Assembly: GCF_003334815.1 (NCBI RefSeq)
Contig: NZ_QOWO01000039.1
From: Escherichia coli
GTDB taxonomy: Bacteria > Pseudomonadota > Gammaproteobacteria > Enterobacterales > Enterobacteriaceae
Length of the DNA stretch: 34,477 nt
Direction: 5' to 3' (one strand)
In this document: positions 332 through 20,349 of the stretch, piece by piece
Layout: each line of letters starts with the position of its first letter
Numbering within the stretch: position 1 is the stretch's first letter
Notes under the pieces: generated by a model
Seen by the model: the letters and a program-made list of their open reading frames with translations, nothing else
Told to the model about the DNA's origin: nothing
The model's database searches: none
Position numbers and translations under genes: made by a program

Positions 332-1027
332 TTAGCAGTCATCAATAATCAAGTAAGTTGCATGTACTGGTCCATGCACACCAACAACTTTGATCAGTTC
401 TATATCTGCAGTAGAACTTGGGCCTCCAATCAGATTGATACAGGAAGGCAGTCGTTGTCCTTCCTGAGCCATTTCATGAAGTTTTTGCGCAAGCTGAGCC
501 ACTCGGGGGAGAATAGTGCTTTTGCGTAAAACAAATAATGATGCTTCAGGCAAAAGGCTTACTGAGCGCCCACGTTCTGGTGCGGAGAATAAGACAATGC
601 CTCCTGATTCTGTCAGCCCATACTCAGCGAAAACGACACCAGTTTTTGCCTTTTCAGCAAGATGGATATTTTCATCGCCCTTCTCCGGATCCCACAGAGC
701 AGCGTCCATTTCTTTTTGTAGCAATGGCGTAATCCCTGTATCGACCAGTCGTTGATCGTTGCTGATAATGACTGGCCCGGAACCGAACTTCCAACAGATG
801 TCTAAGGCTGTTGATGGTGCGTTCTCAGGCGACACCAGAACACACTCGGCAAGCATCACTTCCGAGGCAAATTTAATAAACGCCTCACAGCGTTGGTCTG
901 ATGTCAACTCTGTTAAACGTGTCGTAGCCAGCGTATTTACAGGCTCCGGCATTGCTTCGGGAATATGTCTTACTGGTCTGCCAAGCTTTCTGGCGATCGC
1001 AACGAGAAATTCCTCTCTGTTTTCCAT
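332..1027 (-). CDS. lutC: Lactate utilisation protein C (LutC/YkgG family)
   Basis: 231-aa ORF, last gene of a tightly spaced lutA-lutB-lutC arrangement; conserved C-terminal block ...AEYGLTESGG..LFS..ERGRS.SLLPE.SLF.LRKSTI.PR... resembles E. coli YkgG as recalled from memory. Confidence 0.85.
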   Translation of the reverse strand: MENREEFLVAIARKLGRPVRHIPEAMPEPVNTLATTRLTELTSDQRCEAFIKFASEVMLAECVLVSPENAPSTALDICWKFGSGPVIISNDQRLVDTGITPLLQKEMDAALWDPEKGDENIHLAEKAKTGVVFAEYGLTESGGIVLFSAPERGRSVSLLPEASLFVLRKSTILPRVAQLAQKLHEMAQEGQRLPSCINLIGGPSSTADIELIKVVGVHGPVHATYLIIDDC

Positions 1028-1030
1028 AAA

Positions 1031-2446
1031 TTACCCCTCCTTCTTATGTCGCTTGAACCAACTACGGAAGCTTTCTCCATCAGGTGATGGCAGGTCTCTG
1101 GCTTCAGTCCATTCTTTTATCGCTCCAACACTAATCGGCGTTTTTCCTTTCCTGATGAACAGACGGGCTGTTTTGGCCCCAGCAACCATACCTACCTTCC
1201 ACAACGCCGGATGGCTGTTTATGTAATTGAATGCTCTGGTTATACGGCGTTCCGTTAATGGTGTGATTTCAGACTCTGCCATAACCTGGCGATGTTTTTG
1301 TATTAGCGTTGCCAGAGGTATTTTTACAGGACATACCCCATTGCAGGCAGTGCACAATGAGCAGGCATAGGGTAAATCCTTAAAGTCTTCATATCCACCA
1401 AGCAATGGGGAAATAACCGCACCGATTGGCCCCGGGTAGATTGAACCATAACCATGCCCACCAATCTGACGATAAGCCGGGCAGGTATTAATGCAGGCAC
1501 CGCAGCGGATACATCGCAATACATCGCTGAATTCTGAGCCGAGAATCTCTGAACGCCCATTGTCAACAATAACGAGATGGAACTCTTCCGGACCATCAAC
1601 ATGTCCTTCTTCTCTGGGGCCTGTAAGCCAGGTGTTATAACCTGTCAGTCTCGCCCCGACAGCACTCCTTGCAAGCATGGTAATCAGAACATCCACCTCC
1701 TGGAATGTCGGAGCAATACGCTCCATACCCATAACAGCAATATGTGTTTTAGGTAATGTGGTGCACATCCGTGCGTTGCCTTCGTTTGTAACAAGGCAGA
1801 CTGACCCTGTTTCTGCAACGGCAAAGTTACACCCCGTTACGCCAACTTCAGCACTCAGAAAATCTTGTCTGATTTTCTCACGGATGAACAATGTCATTGC
1901 TTCTGGAGTTTCAGGCCCGTCATACCCCAGATGTTCATGTAAAACTCTGCGGATTTGATGGCGATCTTTATGTATTGCCGGCACAACCACATGCGATGGT
2001 GGCTCATGTGCTAGCTGAAGAATATATTCCCCAAGGTCCGTTTCAATCACGGGTATCCCGGCTTTCTGAAGAACGGCATTCATGCCAATTTCCTCAGTCA
2101 CCATTGATTTGGATTTAACAACCTTCCTGGCGTTTTTTTCTTTCGCCACCTTCAGTATGTAACTGGTTGCATCCTCTCTGGTACGGGCAAAATATACATG
2201 CCCGCCATTCGCAGTAACCTTTTCGGACAATTGATACAAATAAGCATCAAGATTTTCCAGAACATGCCGACGAATCTGTTCAGCTCGTGAACGCCATTCC
2301 TCCCAGTGTCCCAGTTCATCAACCATTTTCTGTCGATTAGTCCCTATGCGCTCCTGTGCGTTAGCCACAGCTTTTCGCATGATCGGGTCCTGAATCTGAA
2401 TACGGATACGCTCTTTAAACCTGATATCACTTGTTTTCAAAGACAT
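1031..2446 (-). CDS. lutB: Lactate utilisation protein B (LutB/YkgF family), 4Fe-4S iron-sulfur protein
   Basis: 471-aa ORF with ferredoxin-type cysteine motifs CIRCGACINTCP and CSLCTACNGVCP; 3-bp gap to lutC and 10-bp gap to lutA. Confidence 0.9.
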   Translation of the reverse strand: MSLKTSDIRFKERIRIQIQDPIMRKAVANAQERIGTNRQKMVDELGHWEEWRSRAEQIRRHVLENLDAYLYQLSEKVTANGGHVYFARTREDATSYILKVAKEKNARKVVKSKSMVTEEIGMNAVLQKAGIPVIETDLGEYILQLAHEPPSHVVVPAIHKDRHQIRRVLHEHLGYDGPETPEAMTLFIREKIRQDFLSAEVGVTGCNFAVAETGSVCLVTNEGNARMCTTLPKTHIAVMGMERIAPTFQEVDVLITMLARSAVGARLTGYNTWLTGPREEGHVDGPEEFHLVIVDNGRSEILGSEFSDVLRCIRCGACINTCPAYRQIGGHGYGSIYPGPIGAVISPLLGGYEDFKDLPYACSLCTACNGVCPVKIPLATLIQKHRQVMAESEITPLTERRITRAFNYINSHPALWKVGMVAGAKTARLFIRKGKTPISVGAIKEWTEARDLPSPDGESFRSWFKRHKKEG

Positions 2447-2456
2447 TCTGTTTACC

Positions 2457-3176
2457 TCATCTGTGCATCAGGACTTCAGCAATATGCATCACTTTTACAG
2501 GATGCCCTTCACGGTTAAGCCGACCGCCGATGTTTAGCAGGCAACTGGCGTCAGCCCCGATAAGAAAATCAGGTTTAACATCCATAATATGCCCGACTTT
2601 CTCTTTCACCATTTCACCAGAGATCTCCGCCATTTTTACAGAGAATGTGCCGCCAAACCCGCAGCACGTTTCCTGAGCGTGAAACGGCAGTAGCTCAAGC
2701 CCCTGTACATTCTCAAGTAGCAAAAGCGGCTCTCTGGTTACACCCAGCTTACGGGAAAGGCTGCAGGAGGGATGGTACACAGCGCGACCATTGAGTTTTG
2801 CCCCAACATCTGTGATGCCAAGATGATTTACTATAAATGATGTCAAATCATGCAGGCGTTCAGCCACTTTTTCAGCTCGTGCCGCCCACTCAGGTTCTTC
2901 ACTGAGATAGCGAGCGTAATTTTTTATCGTGTAAGTGCATGACCCGGCAGGAGATACTACCGGCCAGTCATTCTCTTCCAGCGAAGATATGAGATTTTTC
3001 ATGCCCGGGATGGCATCACGAACATAACCGCCATTTATCGCTGGCTGACCACAACATCCCTGCTTTTCGGGGAAATGGACATTGCAACCCAATTGCTCCA
3101 GTAACAGCACACTCTTTTGTGCCATCCGGGATTTAAACGCATCACCAATGCAGGTGACGAAAAAGTTAACATTCAC
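2457..3176 (-). CDS. lutA: Lactate utilisation protein A (LutA/YkgE family), cysteine-rich Fe-S oxidoreductase subunit
   Basis: 239-aa ORF; N-terminus MNVNFFVTCIGD... and CCG-type cysteine motifs (GCCGQP, CCGFGG) typical of YkgE/LutA; first of the three lut genes. Confidence 0.9.
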   Translation of the reverse strand: MNVNFFVTCIGDAFKSRMAQKSVLLLEQLGCNVHFPEKQGCCGQPAINGGYVRDAIPGMKNLISSLEENDWPVVSPAGSCTYTIKNYARYLSEEPEWAARAEKVAERLHDLTSFIVNHLGITDVGAKLNGRAVYHPSCSLSRKLGVTREPLLLLENVQGLELLPFHAQETCCGFGGTFSVKMAEISGEMVKEKVGHIMDVKPDFLIGADASCLLNIGGRLNREGHPVKVMHIAEVLMHR

Positions 3177-3225
3177 AGAAATTTCTCCTGTTGATTAATA
3201 TTCCACGTCCTTTTGTTGTTTTTTC

Positions 3226-4782
3226 TCAGGCCATGAACAGGTGGTAGACAAGGCCTACTTTCAGTCCAAGAATAACAATATAAGCAAAGCAGTACTTCAG
3301 TGTTCCTGACATGATTACGCTGCCCTGACCATCCATACGGGTGGCTGAAACAGCGATAGCAATACTCTGAGGAGAAATCATTTTGCCGCCTGTTGCGCCA
3401 GATGTATTTGCGGCAGCCAGCCAGAGCGGGTCCACATGCAATTTTTCAGCCGCAGTAGTCTGCAATTTACCAAACAGAATGTTGGAGTTTGTGTCACTAC
3501 CAGTAACAAATGTACCAAGAGCGCCGATAACCGGAGCAATGAAGAGGTAGGCCCCACCAGTCAGATCCACAAGGCTCTGTGCCAGAGTGCCAATCAACCC
3601 ACAGACATCCATTACCGTTGCCATGGCAACAATCGCAGAAATGGCAATAATGGAGTTTTTAAGTTGTTTTACCGTGCTGACAAATACGTTTAACAGGCAT
3701 GACAGGGATGCTTTCTGTATCAAGCCGCCAATAACACTGGCAATGATAATCAGAACACCGGGGGTTGCGATCCATTCAATTTTCATCGACAGATTGCTGC
3801 CGTTACTCAGAGAGAAGGTGAGTGACGAGGCAATCTGAGACACTGCACTTTTTATCGTCGGGAACAGTGGAGAGCAAAGCAGAATGAACAGAAAGATCAG
3901 AATGTAGATTGAGCACGCACGTAACAACGCCCCACGAGAGTATGAAAGTGCGCTGGCGCTATCTGCTGAACTCTCAATAAGAAATTCAGGTTCTGTTTTT
4001 TCTTTACGGTTTTTTGCCATAAAGACTATAACGATCAGACTGACAAGACTTCCTGCGAAAGCCGGGAGCTCTGCGCCAAGATTAACAGCCACCAGATACT
4101 GAGGTATCAATGTGCTAATACCGCACATCAGGGTAATTAACCCTACGCCTCGTATAGCTTTCATACCTCCACCGATAATCGTGACGATAACGAAGGGGAG
4201 CAGAATGTTGAACAGTGCCAGCTGAAGAATAATCGTCCCGCTGAGTGTGGTTACAGGTAAATTAACTTGTTCAGCAAGCACGGAGACAGGTATACCGACT
4301 GCCCCAAACGCTGTAGGGACTGTATTAGCAACCAGTGATGCAATCGCTGCTTTTAGTGGGTTAAAGCCCAGTGCAATGAGTATACCTATGGGGATTGCTA
4401 CCGCTGTACCGTATCCGGCGGCCGCCTCAAGAAATCCGCCAAAACACCATGAGATAAGAAGAACCTGGATGCGTTTATCGTCACTAACGCTCGCCAGAAC
4501 ATTTCTCAGAATATCCATGCTTTTTGTCGCATTCATCAGGTTATAGCTGTAAATGGCAGCAAGGATGACAATCACAATCGGCCACAAACCTTTGATTGCG
4601 CCGTATACCACAGCAGATCCCATATCCATAACTGGCGTCTGCCAGAAAACCCCTCCAAGGATTAGCGTGAGCAGGAGAGTGCTAAGCACAGAATAGTGTA
4701 TGGGCATTTTGACTTTCAGAATCAAAATGATCATCGCCAGAAGGGGGGTAAGTCCCAGTAAAAAAAGCAGGTAATCGTGCAT
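3226..4782 (-). CDS. lctP: L-lactate permease (LctP family), polytopic inner-membrane transporter
   Basis: 518-aa highly hydrophobic ORF with multiple predicted transmembrane segments, directly upstream of lutABC on the same strand (49-bp gap); RBS aaggaa before the ATG. Confidence 0.8.
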   Translation of the reverse strand: MHDYLLFLLGLTPLLAMIILILKVKMPIHYSVLSTLLLTLILGGVFWQTPVMDMGSAVVYGAIKGLWPIVIVILAAIYSYNLMNATKSMDILRNVLASVSDDKRIQVLLISWCFGGFLEAAAGYGTAVAIPIGILIALGFNPLKAAIASLVANTVPTAFGAVGIPVSVLAEQVNLPVTTLSGTIILQLALFNILLPFVIVTIIGGGMKAIRGVGLITLMCGISTLIPQYLVAVNLGAELPAFAGSLVSLIVIVFMAKNRKEKTEPEFLIESSADSASALSYSRGALLRACSIYILIFLFILLCSPLFPTIKSAVSQIASSLTFSLSNGSNLSMKIEWIATPGVLIIIASVIGGLIQKASLSCLLNVFVSTVKQLKNSIIAISAIVAMATVMDVCGLIGTLAQSLVDLTGGAYLFIAPVIGALGTFVTGSDTNSNILFGKLQTTAAEKLHVDPLWLAAANTSGATGGKMISPQSIAIAVSATRMDGQGSVIMSGTLKYCFAYIVILGLKVGLVYHLFMA

Positions 4783-5360
4783 GTCATTTCCTTAAACGAA
4801 AACAAAGTCAGCATCATTACTGTGGTTATTGATAGTTTCCACGCCCTGTCGGACGAGAGTGTTTATTTATCAGGGGGAGAATGAGTATCGTCTCCAAAAT
4901 TGGGATGTTCTTATAAAGTATTTTTTAGTTTAAAAAATATAGCTGAATCGTTTCATTGTTATCTTCCATGAATAAATGTTATGAAATAATACTTTTTGGG
5001 TATTTTTTGTTTATGCGTGTAACACTTGTGTGCTATCCCGATATAACCTTAAGACTGGAGTTGCAACTGGAGCTCGTCGAAAATCAACGCCCAAATCCTC
5101 GACAAATGGAGAAAGAGAATGAGCAATATCACCAGGAATAGGTAAGCGTCAACGGGGATGAAATACGGGGATTACCGGAGTCAGAGCGTCTTGCCGTCAG
5201 GCAGCAGCGAAGCAAAGTGTTACTGACGTCACTGCATGAATGGATGGTGGAGAAGAATGGTACGCTGTCGAAAAAATGTAAGCGTCGTCTGAGTACCGTC
5301 TGGTCCCGAATCCAGGATCCTGTAACTTAAGCACCCACTTATTTTGCAGGTGGACACCTC

Positions 5361-5744
5361 ATGCGCGCTAAAGAAAGACTTCCCCGGAAACACTATTCCC
5401 CTGAATTCAAAATGGAACTGGTCAGGCTGGCTCTTGAAGAAGAAGGCAGTATTGCCGCACTGGCCCGGAAACATGACGTCAATGATAACCTGCTCTTTAA
5501 ATGGATAAGGCTCTGGCAGCGTGAAGGGCGGGTCTGTCGGCCCCGAAAAAACTCATCGTCGCTTCCTGCCCTGATACCCGTGCAGCTTCAGGCGGGCTCT
5601 TCTCTCCCAACCTTCGAACTACCATCCTGCTCTCCTCCCGCTACCTGCCACATAAAATGTCGGGGAGGAGAAATAACACTGACTCATCCCTCTGCTGAAC
5701 TCATGAGCACTGTCCTGCGCGAACTGATGCGGGGGCCTGTATGA
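5361..5744 (+). CDS. tnpA: IS66-family accessory protein OrfA (TnpA)
   Basis: 127-aa ORF, first in the IS66-type three-gene arrangement; its stop overlaps the orfB start (ATGA). Confidence 0.8.
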   Translation: MRAKERLPRKHYSPEFKMELVRLALEEEGSIAALARKHDVNDNLLFKWIRLWQREGRVCRPRKNSSSLPALIPVQLQAGSSLPTFELPSCSPPATCHIKCRGGEITLTHPSAELMSTVLRELMRGPV

Positions 5745-6088
5745 TAAATCTTCCCGCAGGCACAAAAATCTGGCTGGTTGCCGGTATCACCGATATGCGC
5801 AACGGCTTCAATGGCCTCGCCGCAAAGGTGCAGACCGCGCTGAAAGATGACCCGATGTCCGGCCACGTCTTCATCTTCCGGGGACGCAGCGGCAGTCAGG
5901 TAAAACTGCTCTGGTCCACCGGCGATGGTCTGTGCCTGCTGACAAAGCGACTAGAACGTGGTCGCTTCGCCTGGCCCTCAGCCCGCGATGGCAAAGTGTT
6001 CCTGACGCCGGCGCAACTGGCGATGCTGATGGAAGGTATCGACTGGCGACAGCCAAAGCGGTTACTGACATCCCTGACCATGTTGTAG
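5741..6088 (+). CDS. tnpB: IS66-family accessory protein OrfB (TnpB)
   Basis: 115-aa ORF translationally coupled to orfA; precedes the transposase gene. Confidence 0.8.
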   Translation: MINLPAGTKIWLVAGITDMRNGFNGLAAKVQTALKDDPMSGHVFIFRGRSGSQVKLLWSTGDGLCLLTKRLERGRFAWPSARDGKVFLTPAQLAMLMEGIDWRQPKRLLTSLTML

Positions 6089-6137
6089 CGCTCTTTATCC
6101 TGGTTGTCGCAGAATAAGCCTGGTAAAATACAGGCTT

Positions 6138-7672
6138 ATGAACGACACCTCTTCTGACGACATCCTTCTGCTGAAACAGCGCCTGGCCGAACAGGAAGCG
6201 TTGATCCACGCCCTGCAGGAAAAGCTGAGCAACCGGGAACGCGAAATAGACCATCTGCAGGCGCAACTGGATAAGCTGCGCCGGATGAACTTCGGCAGTC
6301 GTTCCGAAAAGGTATCCCGCGTATCGCGCAAATGGAAGCTGACCTGAACCTGCTGCAGCAGGAAAGCGATACGCTGACCGGCCGGGTGGATGACCCGGCA
6401 GTGCAGCGCCCGCTGCGTCAGACCCGCACCCGCAAACCGTTCCCTGAGTCACTCCCACGGGATGAGAAGCGGCTGCTGCCGACTGAGCCGTGTTGCCCGG
6501 AGTGCGGTGGTTCGCTGAGTTACCTGGGTGAGGATGCCGCCGAACAGCTGGAGCTGATGCGCAGCGCCTTCCGGGTTATCCGGACAGTCCGTGAAAAGCA
6601 TGCCTGCCGTCGGTGCGATCGCATCGTTCAGGCCCCGGCTCCTTCGCGCCCCATCGAACGGGGGATCGCCGGACCGGGGCTGCTGGCCCGAGTGCTGACC
6701 TCAAAGTATGCAGAGCACATACCGCTGTATCGCCAGTCGGAGATCTATGCCCGCCAGGGTGTAGTGTTGAGTCGTTCTGTACTGTCGGGCTGGGTGGATG
6801 CGTGTTGTCGTCTGCTGGCACCGCTGGATGAAGCCCTTCAGCACTATGTCCTGACCGACGGCAAACTCCATGCTGACGATATGCCTGTCCCGGTGCTGTT
6901 GCCGGGCAATAAGAAGACGAAGACCGGGCGCTTATGGACGTACGTTCGAGACGACCGCAACGCCGGATCAGCGCTGGCCCCCGCAGTGTGGTTCGCTTAC
7001 AGCCCGGACAGAAAAGGTATCCACCCTCAGACCCATCTTGCAGGCTTCAGTGGCGTACTGCAGGCTGATGCCTACGCCGGGTTCAACGAGCTCTACCGCG
7101 ACGGCCATATAAAGGAAGCCGCGTGCTGGGCCCATGCCCGCCGAAAAATCCACGATGTTCACGTCCGTACCCCGTCAGCCCTGACGGAGGAGGCGCTGAA
7201 ACGGATCGGCGAGCTGTATGCCATCGAGTCGGAGCTCAGAGGTAAAAGAGCAGAGGAACGGCAGGCAGTCCGGCACCAAAAAGTGCTGCCGCTGCTGGCG
7301 TCACTGGAGGGGTGGCTGCGGGAGAAACAGAAAACCCTCTCAAGGCACTCAGAACTGGCGAAGGCGTTCGGGTATGCGCTGAACCAGTGGCCGGCGCTGA
7401 CCCGCTATGCAGAAGATGGCTGGGTGGAGGTGGATAATAACATTGCCGAAAACGCCCTACGACTGGTCAGTCTGGGGAGAAAAAACTGGCTGTTCTTCGG
7501 CTCGGATCATGGTGGTGAGCGCGGTGCGTCACTGTACAGTCTTATCGGGACGTGCAAATTAAACGGCGTGGATCCGGAACGCTATCTGCATCATGTACTT
7601 GATGTCATCGCCGACTGGCCTGTGAACCGGGTGGGTGCTCTGCTCCCGTGGCGGGTTACTCTGCCTGCCTGA
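6138..7672 (+). pseudogene. tnpC: IS66-family transposase (TnpC) split by a frameshift near 6330-6347
   Basis: Track ORFs 6138..6347 (N-terminal coiled-coil/leucine-zipper-like segment) and 6332..7672 (zinc-finger-like CxxC...CxxC, catalytic core, C-terminal ...LLPWRVTLPA) overlap in different frames and together make one IS66-type transposase. Confidence 0.75.
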
Positions 7673-9802: not shown

Positions 9803-10465
9803 TTAAAATACTTCGGCTACAGGCATGCCTGCAATCTGCTCCCACTCCTTACGCTTTTCCTGAATCAGGCGAGGAAAGTCGACAGGGTAATCATATCCTC
9901 GACTTGCCATTGCGTGCATGGTGTTTGATGCTGTTTCTGGATGAGCACACCATGATGGAACAGGAACCATTGGCAGATTGATGTATTTCGTATGAATTTC
10001 CAGTTTTTTGTCGTCTGTTACAGTACGAGTGAAATTATGAATGTCAAAACCGATAACATCCATAATGTTGCCTGGATAGATACGGACATACAACATTGTG
10101 CCATTTTTAAGGTCAATGCCGAAATAAGCTCCCTGGGTTAAAGATAATCCCTCATACCCCTTCTCTGGAGAGTAGAAGCCTGACTCTTTTATTGTTTGTA
10201 CAACTTTTCTTATTTTTTCTCTCCTTGTTTTTGCACGTGAGTACATCCATATGCCTGGCGCAAGTAATAAGAACCAACTACCGAAAGTGACAACATAATC
10301 TTCGACCTTATTTCCGAAATAACGATCAGAACATAGCATTTCGGTAAAGCCTAATGCGCAGAACAGAAAAAAAGGTATTCCAAGAAAGAAATAAGCTTTT
10401 CTTAATACATAATAAAATAGCCACCAGGTTGGAAATCTGTCTGTTGTTTCTTTTTTAGCTTTCAT
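9803..10465 (-). CDS. excA: Inner-membrane protein at the ExcA (entry-exclusion) position of IncI-type transfer regions
   Basis: 220-aa ORF with two N-terminal hydrophobic segments, last gene of the minus-strand tra block directly after the DotA-like gene; assignment is positional. Confidence 0.45.
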
Positions 10466-14616: not shown

Positions 14617-15197
14617 TTTATTGTCTCCTGCTCGGGGTGGAGCACAAGGTCAGGAAGGCTGTCGTATTTTCTGTCTTCAGGTAGTGGGGCCAGTGGGAAA
14701 CACTGATATCGCCTGGTGATATAACCTTTCCTGTTCCGGTTATCGATGATGCTGAAAGAACGACGTCTGACGCGCCGTAAGGTGGAAGGGTCAGTATCCA
14801 TAACAGGCCAGTCACCGGCACTCAGTGCCGGCGTTCCGGGAACAGATGGCCATAACCAGGTGTCATCGGACATCAGCGAAGTCAGCGGTGAAGGGAGTAT
14901 CCACTGGATGACATGCTGAACGTCGAATGGTGCTTCATCCGGGACAGAAACCTGCCATATTGCCGTTGTTATCAGCTCATCTGTGCTGGACGGCAACAAC
15001 AGCCGCATGCCTGTAACCTTTCCCTGTGTTCTGGCATCCGAGGCGTATATCACTCTGGGATTGGGGGCCGGATGTAACCTGAAGACACGTGACGGCAGAG
15101 TGAATGAGAAACTGTCACCTTTTACCTCAAGTTTTTTAAGAAATACCTGCCCTCTGGCAGGTCTCCGGCAGCGTGGGGTGATATGAATTGTACACAT
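14583..15197 (-). CDS. Protein at the TraV position
   Basis: 204-aa ORF; its start overlaps the traU stop by 1 nt. Confidence 0.45.
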   Translation of the reverse strand: MCTIHITPRCRRPARGQVFLKKLEVKGDSFSFTLPSRVFRLHPAPNPRVIYASDARTQGKVTGMRLLLPSSTDELITTAIWQVSVPDEAPFDVQHVIQWILPSPLTSLMSDDTWLWPSVPGTPALSAGDWPVMDTDPSTLRRVRRRSFSIIDNRNRKGYITRRYQCFPLAPLPEDRKYDSLPDLVLHPEQETIKCKEKHYSQPL

Positions 15198-18100
15198 CAG
15201 AGATTGTATCCCTGTTTTCGGATGAGCTCCGAGGCCAGTTCTTCAATAACATTGTCACTGTTATGTTGGCCCGCCCGGTGCTCAATTAATGACGTTGCAG
15301 AACCTCTGGGGAAGTTTTCGGCCAGAATCTTACGTGCCCGAACTGAACCTAACTTATTTGTCAGTGTTTTACGCAGGGCACTGTCTTTTGGCGATGAGTT
15401 CAGCGCCCATAGCTCCAGTGGACCGACGGTAAATTTGAGTATTCTCGCAAGCGTGCCACTTTTTACCCTGAATACTCCCAGAACAGGAACACCACTACCA
15501 TCTGGTGCCGGGCCTTCCGGCATTTTCAGGAAGCGTTTCAGCATAAATTCAGGAACGTTGAAGTTATCCCTCAGTACGGGGATATCTTCGGGTTTGTAGC
15601 GCAGTAACCAGAGAGTATTTGCTGACTTAAGAACGCTTTCCGGGTAGTCCCTCAGATACTGCGTACTCAGAACCGTGCGGATAGCAAACTTGCGTTGCTC
15701 ACGCTCCTGGGTATCCAGATTTTCCCAGATGAAGTCAATGCCCCGGGCGTTATGCAGTTCATCATAAACTTTTGTCTTAACCTCCTGATCAAGTTGGTTA
15801 ATACGTTTAAGAGCGATTTCATGGTATTCCCGTGGAAGCTGCTTTAACACTTCATCCCTGTATTGTGGCAGGGTGAAGTCACCACCGGCGATCTGACCTG
15901 CAAGCAGGTACATGATGCCGGTTTTAAGCCTGCCTGCAGGCGTTTTGTCACCGGCAACATTATTCAGATCGACAGCGATGACCCGGGTTTCCGGGTTGAT
16001 CATAAACCGGGTATACCCGGATATCATGGGGTAGTCGTTATGTCCCTGCTCGAGCGCGCGGCGGATGTAGTCCAGCAGAAGTTCGTTTGAACCATCACGC
16101 TGAACAGTACCGAAAACATCCCTGAGACTGGTATGGCCCAGCATCGAGGACACTTCGGGAAGCTGGGGCATTGCCTGATAATGTGCCCGCTGAGCCGCCA
16201 TGATATACCCGGCATTGTGGAGCATATCCCGGACTTCGAACCAGGTTGATCTGGCCCACCAGGTTGCATCATGTTTTTCATACAGTCCCGAGTCCTGCAG
16301 TGCTGAATCCACCAGTTCTTCCGTTGAGGCGCGATAAAGTCGCGGATTATTTTCACCGTACTCTTTAAAAGCCAGCTCGATAAGCTGGTTGATAATTTGT
16401 CGGGTGTCTCCGGGGTTACAGGGTTGACCGGTACCGGTATCGACACAGAGAGCACACAGCACCGATGACATGAAATTCTTTTCCGGCGTAATAGGCTTTT
16501 TAGCGCCGTACATCACGTCAAAAAGGTTACGGGTGTATTCCGGATCATTGCTCAGAATAATACCGACAGCTTCGTCTTTTCTTTCCGGAGGAAGACTGTC
16601 GCGAATAAGCTGAACCAGTCCCTGAGCACTGTATCCCTTATCGATATAGGCAATGAAGGGCAGGTTTTTCTGAGCAGATGATATCTGTATTTCCGACAAT
16701 GTATTAATCAGAACTGATTTACCCAGTCCCGGATCGCCTGGTGCGAGTTCTGTATGTTTATTTTGTTGGGATGACGCCAGACCAACCTCAATTGCGGAAC
16801 CGTCTTCTGTATGTAACATAAGATTCCCTTTACCTCGCCAGACAGAGCCTGCCCTGTTAAGCGGGAAAAGCGAGATGGCATGTGACAACGGGGGATACAG
16901 GGGAACCGGGCCGGAGCCTCCGGATGCCGCGAGAATGGTATTCACCCAGGCGCGTCGGGGATCGCCAAATGTTGTCGTGGTGCCACATACGCCCCAGCCT
17001 TCAATGGCTGATTTCAGAATGGCCTGGTTTCGTGTGCATATTTCACGTGTTTTTCCCCACGTGGAGGCCATGATGGTCATTATGCAGACAGGTTCTTTTT
17101 CATCCGTTGCCGCCAGGGCCATAACGGATTCATACATTGGACGAACGGCAGAAATGAAGCTGCTGTAAGTCAGAAGCGTTTTCTTCAGATTAAGAGCCTT
17201 CATCCCGCCGGGCATCAGATCCATTCTGATGCGCCAGGGGACTGCGCGGGGGACGGCACGGACCAGTTCGTTAAACGTCTGCAGATTTTGCGGAGGTAAA
17301 GTAATCGATACCATTCCGTGCCAGAGTCCGCCCGCCTGAACCAGGTTGCCCTGTGTGGTCACCTGAGTGTTGAATAACTGCAAATGCAATGAAGGAGCAT
17401 GTAGTACGGATTCATCGTCAGTCCAGCGATATCCCGCTGGCTGGGCATCTTCAGGCAGGTGGGGTTGCCAGTTACGCGGTGTGCTGTGCCGTTCTGTCTG
17501 ACGACGTATTTCACGCCCGACCTCGTGTATATCCAGTAGCCGGAGAATCAGGCCATCAGATGAATGTCTCAGTGCCTGTTCCACATTATCAAGAAAAGCT
17601 TCGTGGCGGATTTTCAGTGCAGATAAGGTCCACTGCCAGGGGGATTGGGCAAAGCGTGCTTTCGGTACCCGTTCAGCCAGTCTTCTGACAAGCTCATCAT
17701 GGGCGGTGCGATCGCTGTTGCTGATAAGGTCGGGTCCACTCCAGATCGCCAGCCAGCAACGCTCCCGGACCAGCCATGGGGACAGTGTTGTGACTTTCTC
17801 ATCGACCACATCCTGTAACTGGATACCTGTATTAGCCAGTGAGCGCTTTTGTGGGGCGACCATGTCTTCGATTTCTTCTTTCCCCATGTCAGGATCACGC
17901 TCAAAAACGAAGCTGATTTTATGACCGCTGTTTTTATATGCCGTATTCAGGCTGTCACTCATGCTGGTGATCAGCGATTCCAGTGAACCTGGGCCAGTCT
18001 GGTCGGATGCTTCATCCATTTCCCTGAAAGCACCGCTGACTTCAAAGACAGAGAGATATTCTCCACGCTTTGTGGCTGCAATATAGGGCGAATTCAGCCA

Positions 18101-18241
18101 TGGGCGACGTTCACGATCCTGTCTGTCCAGACCAATTACAGTACGTAAATCGCAATACTCAACAAAACTGCTTGCGACAGAGAAACGGGATAGCGTGTTC
18201 AGACAGTCTTCGATAGTGAAGATTAAACGGTTTATGTTCAT
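15197..18241 (-). CDS. traU: DotO/IcmB-like type IVB secretion ATPase (TraU-type)
   Basis: ~1014-aa protein with Walker A-like GDPGLGKS. Start set at the ATG at 18241 (ggag upstream); the track ORF extends to a TTG at 18334. Confidence 0.7.
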   Translation of the reverse strand: MNINRLIFTIEDCLNTLSRFSVASSFVEYCDLRTVIGLDRQDRERRPWLNSPYIAATKRGEYLSVFEVSGAFREMDEASDQTGPGSLESLITSMSDSLNTAYKNSGHKISFVFERDPDMGKEEIEDMVAPQKRSLANTGIQLQDVVDEKVTTLSPWLVRERCWLAIWSGPDLISNSDRTAHDELVRRLAERVPKARFAQSPWQWTLSALKIRHEAFLDNVEQALRHSSDGLILRLLDIHEVGREIRRQTERHSTPRNWQPHLPEDAQPAGYRWTDDESVLHAPSLHLQLFNTQVTTQGNLVQAGGLWHGMVSITLPPQNLQTFNELVRAVPRAVPWRIRMDLMPGGMKALNLKKTLLTYSSFISAVRPMYESVMALAATDEKEPVCIMTIMASTWGKTREICTRNQAILKSAIEGWGVCGTTTTFGDPRRAWVNTILAASGGSGPVPLYPPLSHAISLFPLNRAGSVWRGKGNLMLHTEDGSAIEVGLASSQQNKHTELAPGDPGLGKSVLINTLSEIQISSAQKNLPFIAYIDKGYSAQGLVQLIRDSLPPERKDEAVGIILSNDPEYTRNLFDVMYGAKKPITPEKNFMSSVLCALCVDTGTGQPCNPGDTRQIINQLIELAFKEYGENNPRLYRASTEELVDSALQDSGLYEKHDATWWARSTWFEVRDMLHNAGYIMAAQRAHYQAMPQLPEVSSMLGHTSLRDVFGTVQRDGSNELLLDYIRRALEQGHNDYPMISGYTRFMINPETRVIAVDLNNVAGDKTPAGRLKTGIMYLLAGQIAGGDFTLPQYRDEVLKQLPREYHEIALKRINQLDQEVKTKVYDELHNARGIDFIWENLDTQEREQRKFAIRTVLSTQYLRDYPESVLKSANTLWLLRYKPEDIPVLRDNFNVPEFMLKRFLKMPEGPAPDGSGVPVLGVFRVKSGTLARILKFTVGPLELWALNSSPKDSALRKTLTNKLGSVRARKILAENFPRGSATSLIEHRAGQHNSDNVIEELASELIRKQGYNL

Positions 18242-18330
18242 AGGTGAGGGAACTCCGGACTTACAGGAGGGAGGTTTGTGCAGTTTGATTTTTTTAATGC
18301 CACCCCGCGCTGGAGTGGCATGAAGAAAAA

Positions 18331-19131
18331 TCAATCAACGTATTCTTTTTTGATGAATGAATCTGGTGTCAGAATCAGGGCAATCCCGTTCATTTTTTCA
18401 CGCAGGGGCGAACGACCGGAAGGTGGATAGCGACGAAAAACGTCAGCGAAATCGGCCGGGCGGAAACTGCGGAATTTATCCTCAACCGCCAGTCTGTTTT
18501 GCATCAGTGCAGAGAGCGCTTCCCGTCCCCGCCGGACCCGGAACTTATCATTACTGAAAACTTCCTGTAATGAACGACGGTTAAGGGCCACGACCGTGGA
18601 TGGATGAAGGTCGGGTAGCCACACCATAACGCCCTGTGCTGCGGCATAACCATTCAGTGAATGCCAGGCGTGGCAGAAAGCACATAAGCTGTAAGGCGGG
18701 CCGTCTTCATGAAACAGTTCCTGCTCTTTCTCTGACAACGACTCTGTACTGGTGATTTCAGCTTTCTGTACATGGCGGAGTGAAAGACGTCTGGCAGACA
18801 GACGGGCCTGCTCAAGCGCCCGTTCAGCGGCTTTTACTGCCGTGTTGTACTTTTCCTTTTCGCCGGTTGCGACTGGTTCACCACGCTTTTTTAACTTATC
18901 CAGATGTTCTGTGGCCTTATTAAGACGAACTCGTGTGTCACTGATTGTGTCGGTAAGCTGTCTGAGTGGCCATGAGTCATCCAGTCTGAAACGGTGCCTG
19001 ACGTTTTGCCGGCAGCAGATACATCGACCGGGCGTTGTTAATTCCGGTTCCGGTAACAGTGGCTCCTGTGTATGAACCACATCAATTTCTGGAAAGGGAT
19101 ACAACCACAAGTCTTTAATGCTGTGTTGCAT
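18331..19131 (-). CDS. Protein at the TraT position, with Cys clusters (CICCRQ..., CAFCHAWH)
   Basis: 266-aa ORF in the operon; possible zinc-binding cysteines. Confidence 0.45.
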   Translation of the reverse strand: MQHSIKDLWLYPFPEIDVVHTQEPLLPEPELTTPGRCICCRQNVRHRFRLDDSWPLRQLTDTISDTRVRLNKATEHLDKLKKRGEPVATGEKEKYNTAVKAAERALEQARLSARRLSLRHVQKAEITSTESLSEKEQELFHEDGPPYSLCAFCHAWHSLNGYAAAQGVMVWLPDLHPSTVVALNRRSLQEVFSNDKFRVRRGREALSALMQNRLAVEDKFRSFRPADFADVFRRYPPSGRSPLREKMNGIALILTPDSFIKKEYVD

Positions 19132-19303
19132 GAGCAGGCTCCGTACTGGTGTAACGTTTCACGGCTTCCAGAATGATGTTTGCGATTTCATCGGAACAGC
19201 ATTCTGCAAAAATGAATTCCTGATCGTCCCGACTGTCGTGGGCAATCACATTGCCGTTTTCTGTTCGTCGTAACGTTATGTGCTCCGGGCTCCAGGCAGA
19301 CAT
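19115..19303 (-). CDS. Hypothetical small acidic protein (62 aa) between the traR-position and traT-position genes
   Basis: Strong RBS (aaggagg) 6 nt before the ATG; overlaps the next gene by 17 nt. Confidence 0.45.
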   Translation of the reverse strand: MSAWSPEHITLRRTENGNVIAHDSRDDQEFIFAECCSDEIANIILEAVKRYTSTEPAHATQH

Positions 19304-19366
19304 ATGTGCCTCCTTGTATTGCCGAATAGGAAGGGCACCGGATAAATGCCAGTGCCCTGGACAAGA

Positions 19367-19771
19367 TTAGCCAATGGAAATTGAGGAAATCCCCAACTGT
19401 TTCTGGCTGCGACTCATCATTTCAGGTCCGGCGACAAGTACCGCCCCAATGACGATAGATACAATGCAACTAGCCAGTCCCATCCCCCCTTGTTTCCCAA
19501 CTTTTTTCAGGCCAATCAGGCCCCCGAGAAACAGAATTACGCCGATGAACTGCGCAATAGTCAGTGATGATGACTGTGCTGTTTTGGCACCTTGTTCGAC
19601 ATTGCGAACCATATCGGCAAGATCTCCATCGGCAAGAACGGCTTTGGGCAGCAACATCATGGGAATGAGCAGCAGGAACTTAGTCAGTTTGCTCCGGCAT
19701 GACATTACAAACAGTTGTGCGTGGATAAATGCGGCGTACAGACGGGCCGCTACGACACGAATACGTGACAT
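19367..19771 (-). CDS. Small membrane protein at the TraR position
   Basis: 134-aa ORF; strong RBS (aaggag) before the ATG at 19771; hydrophobic segments. Confidence 0.5.
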   Translation of the reverse strand: MSRIRVVAARLYAAFIHAQLFVMSCRSKLTKFLLLIPMMLLPKAVLADGDLADMVRNVEQGAKTAQSSSLTIAQFIGVILFLGGLIGLKKVGKQGGMGLASCIVSIVIGAVLVAGPEMMSRSQKQLGISSISIG

Positions 19772-19821
19772 AGTTTCTCCTTAAATGGATATATCAGTGG
19801 TTTATATGAAGGTGAAAAAAA

Positions 19822-20349
19822 TCAGAAGACGATTCCAATGCTTGCCAGCAGGGCATTGAGGACACGATCGATAAAGACCAGCAGGACGCCGGCAATAAAT
19901 TTGACGTTTCCCTTACTGACGGATTCACTGGCACTCAGTGCGGTATGTCCATCGAGTCCGGCCTTGCGCCAGATGGATATCCCGTTCATTACAAATCCAA
20001 CACCGGCCAGCTTGGCCAGCGACAGAACTGCATTTGCTGCGCCAGCAGCAGCGCCAAACGTCTGAGGTTGTACATATGCAATCGGGCCAAATGAGTCAGC
20101 CCTGAATCCCATTTGTACGCCTCCGGCGTTAATCATTGCCGGGAGTGATACGAGCATGCAGCTGGTTAACATCCCCGCAATAAATTTTCCGGGAGACATT
20201 TTTACCGGACCGGCTGAACGGGCGCGGGCAAACAGGGTAATCATGCTGATCACCCCGATGAATTCTCCCCAGGTAAACAGGAAATCCATTCCGGCACTGA
20301 AAATACTGCTGGCAAAGTTCTCAATGGCGGTCAGGGCATCCATGTTCAT
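19822..20349 (-). CDS. Polytopic membrane protein at the TraQ position
   Basis: 175-aa hydrophobic ORF; its start overlaps the traP stop. Confidence 0.5.
   Translation of the reverse strand: MNMDALTAIENFASSIFSAGMDFLFTWGEFIGVISMITLFARARSAGPVKMSPGKFIAGMLTSCMLVSLPAMINAGGVQMGFRADSFGPIAYVQPQTFGAAAGAANAVLSLAKLAGVGFVMNGISIWRKAGLDGHTALSASESVSKGNVKFIAGVLLVFIDRVLNALLASIGIVF

Follow-up and report, generated by a model that had tools for sequence, protein, structure and literature searches.

TraT of IncI1-type conjugative plasmids as a probable DotN-type zinc-binding subunit of the type IVB coupling complex, encoded together with the small protein TraS

What does a cysteine-rich protein of 266 amino acids contribute to an Escherichia coli plasmid, and does the small open reading frame (ORF) that overlaps its start belong to the same function? 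The two ORFs lie in a stretch of 34,477 nucleotides, contig NZ_QOWO01000039.1, which we call the window. The initial annotation had placed the larger protein at the 'TraT position', proposed that its cysteine clusters form a zinc-binding element and described the two ORFs as a coupled pair of unknown role. Comparison with plasmid records established the identity of the locus. Positions 18000-19800 were identical over their full length (100%) to 25 of 25 plasmids among the matches listed, and 1117 plasmid records were at least 99% identical to this segment, mainly from Escherichia and Salmonella and almost all typed as conjugative. The IncI1-type plasmids that match it are annotated with the gene order traR-traS-traT-traU. 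In identical plasmids the 266-aa ORF is traT (WP_001164788.1, 'IncI1-type conjugal transfer protein TraT') and the 62-aa ORF is traS ('putative conjugal transfer protein TraS'), so that the label 'TraT position' proved to be literally right. These are already named, known conjugation genes of a common IncI1-type resistance plasmid. A wider tra series surrounds the pair (traE-F, traH-I-J, an IcmT/TraK-type gene, nuc, sog, traL to traY and excA), and the window carries the transfer region of an IncI1-type conjugative plasmid, encoding a type IVB (Dot/Icm-like) secretion system.

The gene anatomy that had been described, comprising both ORFs, their 17-nt overlap, the strong Shine-Dalgarno sequence (AAGGAGG) and the acidity of the small product (pI 4.9), was confirmed from the sequence (Table 1). 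A short overlap recurs in other lineages, with 14 nt shared between traS and traT in a Pectobacterium plasmid and an E. kobei plasmid compared with 17 nt in IncI1. In IncK2/Z the overlap is 86 nt as annotated (L006:1305-1556); the TraS annotated there has 83 aa, and its C-terminal end is extended by a Pro/Gly-rich stretch that reaches over traT. Scans of positions 17800-20000 for promoters, terminators and Rfam families returned no promoter-like site and no RNA family, and the pair sits within a long operon.

Table 1. Positions in the window of the genes and sequence elements at the traS-traT locus.
Feature	Position	Strand	Basis
traR (DUF6750 family), conserved upstream neighbour	19367..19771	-	annotation and synteny
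Shine-Dalgarno sequence AAGGAGG, 5 nt upstream of the traS ATG	19309..19315	-	sequence
traS, 62 aa, acidic (pI 4.9), lineage-specific small protein	19115..19303	-	ORF, annotation, conserved core, purifying selection
traT ribosome-binding site (RBS) GGAG, 7 nt upstream of the traT ATG, inside traS	19139-19142	-	sequence
traS-traT overlap, 17 nt (end of traS, start of traT)	19115..19131	-	ORF coordinates
traT, 266 aa, basic (pI 9.1), probable DotN/IcmJ-type coupling-complex subunit (type IVB)	18331..19131	-	ORF, annotation, fold match, profile links
C37-I-C-C40 codons (CICC), putative first zinc knuckle, CxxC = C37/C40	19012..19023	-	conservation; aligned with DotN C46/C49
TraT-specific antiparallel two-helix hairpin between the zinc knuckles, residues 54-117 (predicted)	18781..18972	-	AF2 model
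C150-A-F-C153-H154-A-W-H157 codons (CAFCHAWH), putative second zinc knuckle	18661..18684	-	conservation; aligned with DotN C78/C81
C-terminal helical domain shared with DotN, residues 158-266	18334..18660	-	hhalign over TraT 149-261
traU, large conserved conjugal-transfer protein, downstream neighbour	15197..18241	-	annotation; similar-size gene in the same slot of related clusters

Several smaller features accompany the two genes. The 63-nt spacer between traR and traS contains a short GC-containing hairpin (GGCATTTATCCGGTGCC, 19334-19350, minus strand) just upstream of the traS RBS, which has no good T-tract and is unconvincing as a terminator. Antisense ORFs, such as that at 18752-19075 (plus strand), fall wholly within conserved traT coding sequence. 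The traU ORF called by the program begins with TTG at 18334, directly next to the traT stop, and spans 1045 aa; with the database start, at 18241 (1014 aa), an 89-nt spacer separates traT from traU. We take the traU product to be a DotO/IcmB-type ATPase.

The gene names invite a comparison with the TraS and TraT exclusion proteins of the F plasmid, which would make the pair a block to the entry of related plasmids. Only the names are shared, and the sequence evidence points elsewhere: TraT matches neither the F TraT family nor any other family in Pfam, its N-terminus (MQHSIKDLWLYPFPEID) lacks both a lipoprotein signal and a hydrophobic leader, its fold is that of DotN, and the exclusion gene of this plasmid is excA (9803-10465). 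The Pfam and fold results refute the F-type identity, and we give it virtually no chance of being correct.

We favour instead, with a probability of about 85%, the reading that TraT is the DotN-type zinc-binding subunit of the TrbC/TrbA coupling complex. Single-sequence searches with TraT found nothing meaningful in Pfam, NCBIfam, PHROGs or the PDB, and a profile of 36 TraT homologues (44-90% identity) matched no PDB chain. HMM comparison combined with structure prediction, the check suggested in the initial annotation, yielded both a DotN fold and a profile link to DotN, with DotN the sole strong match in the fold search. The link at the level of sequence needs intermediates, because TraT alone and the TraT-only profile both miss DotN in the PDB. 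Among 1.8 billion representative proteins, the TraT profile found short relatives of 170-250 aa. Aligning the TraT-only and relatives-only alignments with hhalign gave a probability of 99.6% (E = 8e-25) over TraT residues 149-261, a match that spans the second cysteine pair and the C-terminal domain only. A combined profile of the relatives and TraT reached IcmJ (DotN) in the PDB at E = 3e-25, covering residues 8-204 of 208 with both CxxC pairs aligned. TraT thus has the DotN fold and is homologous to DotN in sequence, at an identity of only 14-17% to the Legionella protein (PDB 5X1H, 5X42 and 6SZ9). A similarity between R64 TraT and IcmJ was reportedly noted already when R64 was sequenced.

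The two cysteine clusters are conserved. C150 and C153 are invariant in the 36 TraT homologues, and C37, C39, C40, H154 and H157 are at least 90% conserved; in the wider family the first CxxC and the last cysteine are invariant, while the third position is either Cys or Asp. The HMM alignment pairs C37/C40 of TraT with C46/C49 of DotN, and C150/C153 with C78/C81. In one four-sequence MAFFT run the second TraT pair moved to DotN C81/C84, a register shift of one knuckle; DotN has the extra cysteines C79 and C84, and for this second pair the spacing from a conserved 'NL' favours the HMM register over the MAFFT register. A preprint on pOXA-48 uses a solved DotN structure that carries zinc, and its authors accordingly modelled Orf38 with zinc (bioRxiv 10.1101/2025.01.23.634512). 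The idea that the TraT clusters bind zinc is therefore supported on three counts, namely the conservation of both clusters, their alignment with the CxxC...CxxC pattern of DotN/IcmJ and the zinc in the DotN structure. Most likely, C37, C40, C150 and C153 hold one structural zinc.

Synteny places TraT in the same setting. In the clusters examined, the DotN-like gene always has a DUF6750/TraR-like gene on one side and the large gene of the traU slot on the other, and relatives in this slot were found in type IVB clusters of Klebsiella and Pseudomonas syringae plasmids and in metagenomes. The genes for the expected partners, trbA and trbC, are present on a 100%-identical plasmid, just outside the window. 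TrbC matches DotL (E = 2.6e-62) over residues 110-613 and continues for about 150 further C-terminal residues, so that a tail for a DotN-type subunit to hold does exist. In Legionella, the coupling ATPase DotL is bound by DotN at its C-terminal tail; DotN also contacts DotM, both contacts being made by the part that corresponds to the TraT C-terminal helical domain, and mutations in the DotM-DotN interface abolish intracellular growth (PMC7280309). By analogy, we infer that TraT binds the TrbC tail. TraT would clamp this tail through its C-terminal helical domain (about residues 158-266) and would contact TrbA, the counterpart of DotM, while its four cysteines would hold one Zn2+ in a catalytically dead HNH-type beta-beta-alpha finger. 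Without TraT the coupling complex would then become unstable or inactive, and the requirement for traT in transfer would be explained.

Published genetics agree with a role of this kind. In R64, traT was indispensable for transfer and traS was not (Komano et al. 2000, as cited in PMC6112013 and PMC4288162), and a DotN-type subunit role for TraT fits this reported essentiality. Transposon sequencing (Tn-seq) of the IncI1 plasmid pESBL scored both traS and traT as required and called the function of TraS unknown (PMC4288162); given the overlap, traS insertions could have been polar on traT. IncL/M plasmids have a single gene, orf38, in place of traST, and for IncM it is stated that there is 'no homologue of traST' (PMC6112013). 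Orf38 (pOXA-48, pCTX-M3) nevertheless occupies the same slot between traR and traU, and is reported to be DotN-like and essential for transfer. It is 164 aa long (187 aa in the Klebsiella relative examined) and lacks both the helical hairpin of TraT and a traS partner. The Orf38-like proteins of Klebsiella plasmids are about 30% identical to TraT over residues 148-259 and share with it an N-terminal 'LDVSGD..P' motif and both CxxC pairs.

DotN and TraT also differ. DotN has 208 residues compared with 266 in TraT, the greater length of TraT being due to a helical hairpin region of roughly 100 residues between the zinc knuckles. For the DotN partners DotY and DotZ no equivalent is evident in this system, and DotN serves effector delivery, whereas TraT serves DNA conjugation. 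The AF2 model of TraT predicts the hairpin as helices 54-83 and 89-117, with pLDDT of about 85-96. The intermediate relatives P0079 and P0080 have a shorter version of it, and the proteins of Klebsiella, P. syringae and Legionella lack it.

The position of this hairpin bears on the origin of the family. HNH (beta-beta-alpha-metal) nucleases share with the TraT family a CxxC ... CxxCH..H zinc-knuckle pattern, and many relatives of TraT have the full HNH pattern between the knuckles, for example P0126 (...CRHCGF...VHHLDDDHSNN..NL..VCPLCHSVHH). Two DotN-like proteins encoded in the same gene slot of other type IVB clusters, P0126 and P0131 (L015:4558-5208; L017:5001-5753), have most or all of the HNH motif, which is complete in P0126. 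Pfam HNH_3 matches one family member at 1.2e-6 and Pfam HNH matches P0126 at 0.018, and the combined profile gave weak matches to HNH-containing PDB chains (E = 0.006-0.8). The DotN/TraT family looks like a degenerate HNH zinc finger, in which the CAFCHAWH cluster is, judging by its pattern, a relic of the HNH 'CxxCH..H' helix.

Could TraT then have an enzymatic role instead of a structural one, cutting DNA during transfer as an active nuclease of the HNH type? The HNH-like character of the wider family, the members in which the motif is complete (HH..N..CxxCH..H) and the HNH matches given above would all be compatible with such a role. In TraT itself, however, the helical hairpin replaces the catalytic His/Asn segment, and a search of TraT against Pfam gave no HNH match. 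DotN has likewise lost the catalytic histidines, and the nicking enzyme of IncI1 is the relaxase NikB, which is annotated on the identical plasmid. Because the hairpin takes the place of the catalytic segment, a nuclease role for TraT is very unlikely, and the resemblance of TraT and DotN to HNH enzymes, both being without that segment, appears ancestral and not functional. To judge from their motifs, some DotN-like members of the family may still be active nucleases.

If TraT is a DotN-type subunit, what is TraS? We compared copies from IncI1, IncK2/Z, the Pectobacterium plasmid and the Enterobacter kobei plasmid. Across these four lineages 19 positions are invariant, within the core ITL.RTE.GNVIA.D..D.QEF.FAEC.S..IA, and the C-terminal tails vary; TraS and its Pectobacterium copy are 60% identical over 47 aa. 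The four diverged traS copies are under purifying selection, with pN of 0.26-0.41 against pS of 0.69-0.87, the latter being saturated. The AF2 model of TraS predicts a three-stranded sheet and one helix (pLDDT 79, about 90 in the core).

These data bear on whether the 62-aa ORF encodes a functional protein at all, or is a chance ORF or a leader whose translation delivers ribosomes to traT. Some observations would suit the latter: R64 traS mutants still transfer (R64 work as cited in PMC6112013 and PMC4288162), the ORF is absent from many related clusters, the traT RBS and start lie inside it, and the traS defect in the pESBL Tn-seq screen could be a polar effect on traT (our inference from PMC4288162). 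Against this stand the excess of pS over pN and the 19 invariant residues in four lineages, the confident compact predicted fold, and the fact that traT owns a separate GGAG site. We consider a non-functional ORF unlikely. Since it has a conserved core and its pN lies well below pS, traS is, on comparative grounds, a real gene.

The distribution of traS is narrower than that of traT. With tblastn of plasmid records, TraS was found in 1790, all from Enterobacterales, and TraT in 2309, and TraS is confined to I-complex plasmids and a few relatives; six other clusters that we compared lack it. In the clusters L002, L004/L005 and L007, traS is missing and no room is left for it, although TraT is full length and has the hairpin; traS is also missing from the short-form clusters L008 and L009. 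Conservation across homologous clusters, on which the initial annotation had staked both of its proposals, therefore came out divided, the cysteines being kept and the small ORF being absent from these same clusters. The notion of a coupled pair stands as far as gene anatomy goes, with an overlap of 14-17 nt in three diverged plasmids. It does not extend to an obligate two-part unit, because the small ORF is missing from several related clusters. The description 'unknown role' no longer applies to the large protein, a named and essential TraT homologous to DotN, while the role of TraS stays a guess.

No relatives of TraS were detected by sequence or profile in NCBIfam, PHROG, Pfam or the PDB. 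Foldseek gave no significant match, the best (E = 0.076) being the N-terminal, arm-binding domain of lambda integrase. We rejected a lambda-integrase-like DNA binder, the match being to a generic three-strand-plus-helix arrangement and an acidic protein being a poor candidate for DNA binding. We likewise rejected the idea that TraS is a split-off N-terminal piece of DotN, for which hhalign gave a probability of 2.5%. Nor does traS track the Sog primase: an E. cloacae plasmid that lacks traS has a gene for a Sog-like primase at the same location.

Our best guess, held with low confidence, is that TraS is a dispensable accessory of the coupling complex that is made together with TraT. TraS would be produced from its strong RBS, and its translation is probably coupled to that of traT through the 17-nt overlap. 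It would have been added in the I-complex lineage as a non-essential accessory of the same complex, possibly in contact with TraT.

TraS might alternatively serve a transferred protein, the Sog primase for instance, as an adaptor or chaperone resembling IcmS and IcmW. Those two proteins are described as small acidic adaptors (PMC9302130) and in the Dot/Icm system are encoded with coupling-complex genes, as TraS is; TraS is small and acidic, adjoins a DotN homologue and is dispensable for R64 DNA transfer (as reported through PMC6112013), which might also hold for an adaptor of a protein substrate. TraS is, on the other hand, half the size of IcmS and IcmW and confined to I-complex plasmids, it has no detectable similarity in sequence or fold to IcmS, IcmW or anything else, and its gene does not track sog, the E. 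cloacae plasmid keeping a Sog-like primase without it. An adaptor of this type is doubtful.

A broader reading joins TraS to the hairpin of TraT and to the ancestry of the family, and we regard it as a speculative proposal with a small chance of holding as a whole. TraS would dock on the TraT-specific helical hairpin to form a recruitment module of the coupling complex specific to the I-complex. This module would be a functional stand-in for DotY/DotZ or IcmSW and would tune which substrates are exported (relaxase-DNA, Sog primase). The DotN/TraT family would in this reading descend from an HNH nuclease, and those members in other type IVB clusters whose motif is complete would perhaps still cut DNA.

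TraT is essential for the transfer of IncI1 and related plasmids, which are major carriers of extended-spectrum beta-lactamase (ESBL) genes and other resistance determinants. In databases its only label is 'IncI1-type conjugal transfer protein TraT', and it matches no family in Pfam or NCBIfam. Placing TraT with DotN would link the coupling complexes of IncI plasmids, IncL/M plasmids (Orf38) and Legionella, and the predicted zinc site and tail-binding domain would offer a concrete target for mechanistic or inhibitor work. The outcome is a refined annotation of a long-known gene and not a new system. Its additions are modest: an explicit demonstration by fold and profile of the relationship to DotN, the link between IncI TraT and IncL/M Orf38, the apparent degenerate HNH origin of the family, the TraT-specific hairpin and the patchy distribution of traS.

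Some further observations concern the surroundings of DotN-type genes and of the transfer region. The junctions of DotN-type genes look like an insertion hot spot (L006:2344-3601; L004:4949-6000; L009:1659-2112). Between traT and traU, plasmids of the IncK2/Z and Kluyvera types have three small genes, two forward and one reverse, that are unannotated and gave no NCBIfam match. In a P. syringae plasmid, a RelE/ParE toxin-antitoxin pair lies between traR and the DotN-like gene. Within the window, positions 332-7672 form a side region in which a lactate-utilisation set (LutA/B/C-like Fe-S proteins and an L-lactate permease; 332-4782, minus strand) is adjoined by IS66-family fragments (about 5361-7672). 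Located between excA and trbABC, the latter outside the window, the lactate-utilisation set is metabolic cargo inserted in the plasmid transfer region.
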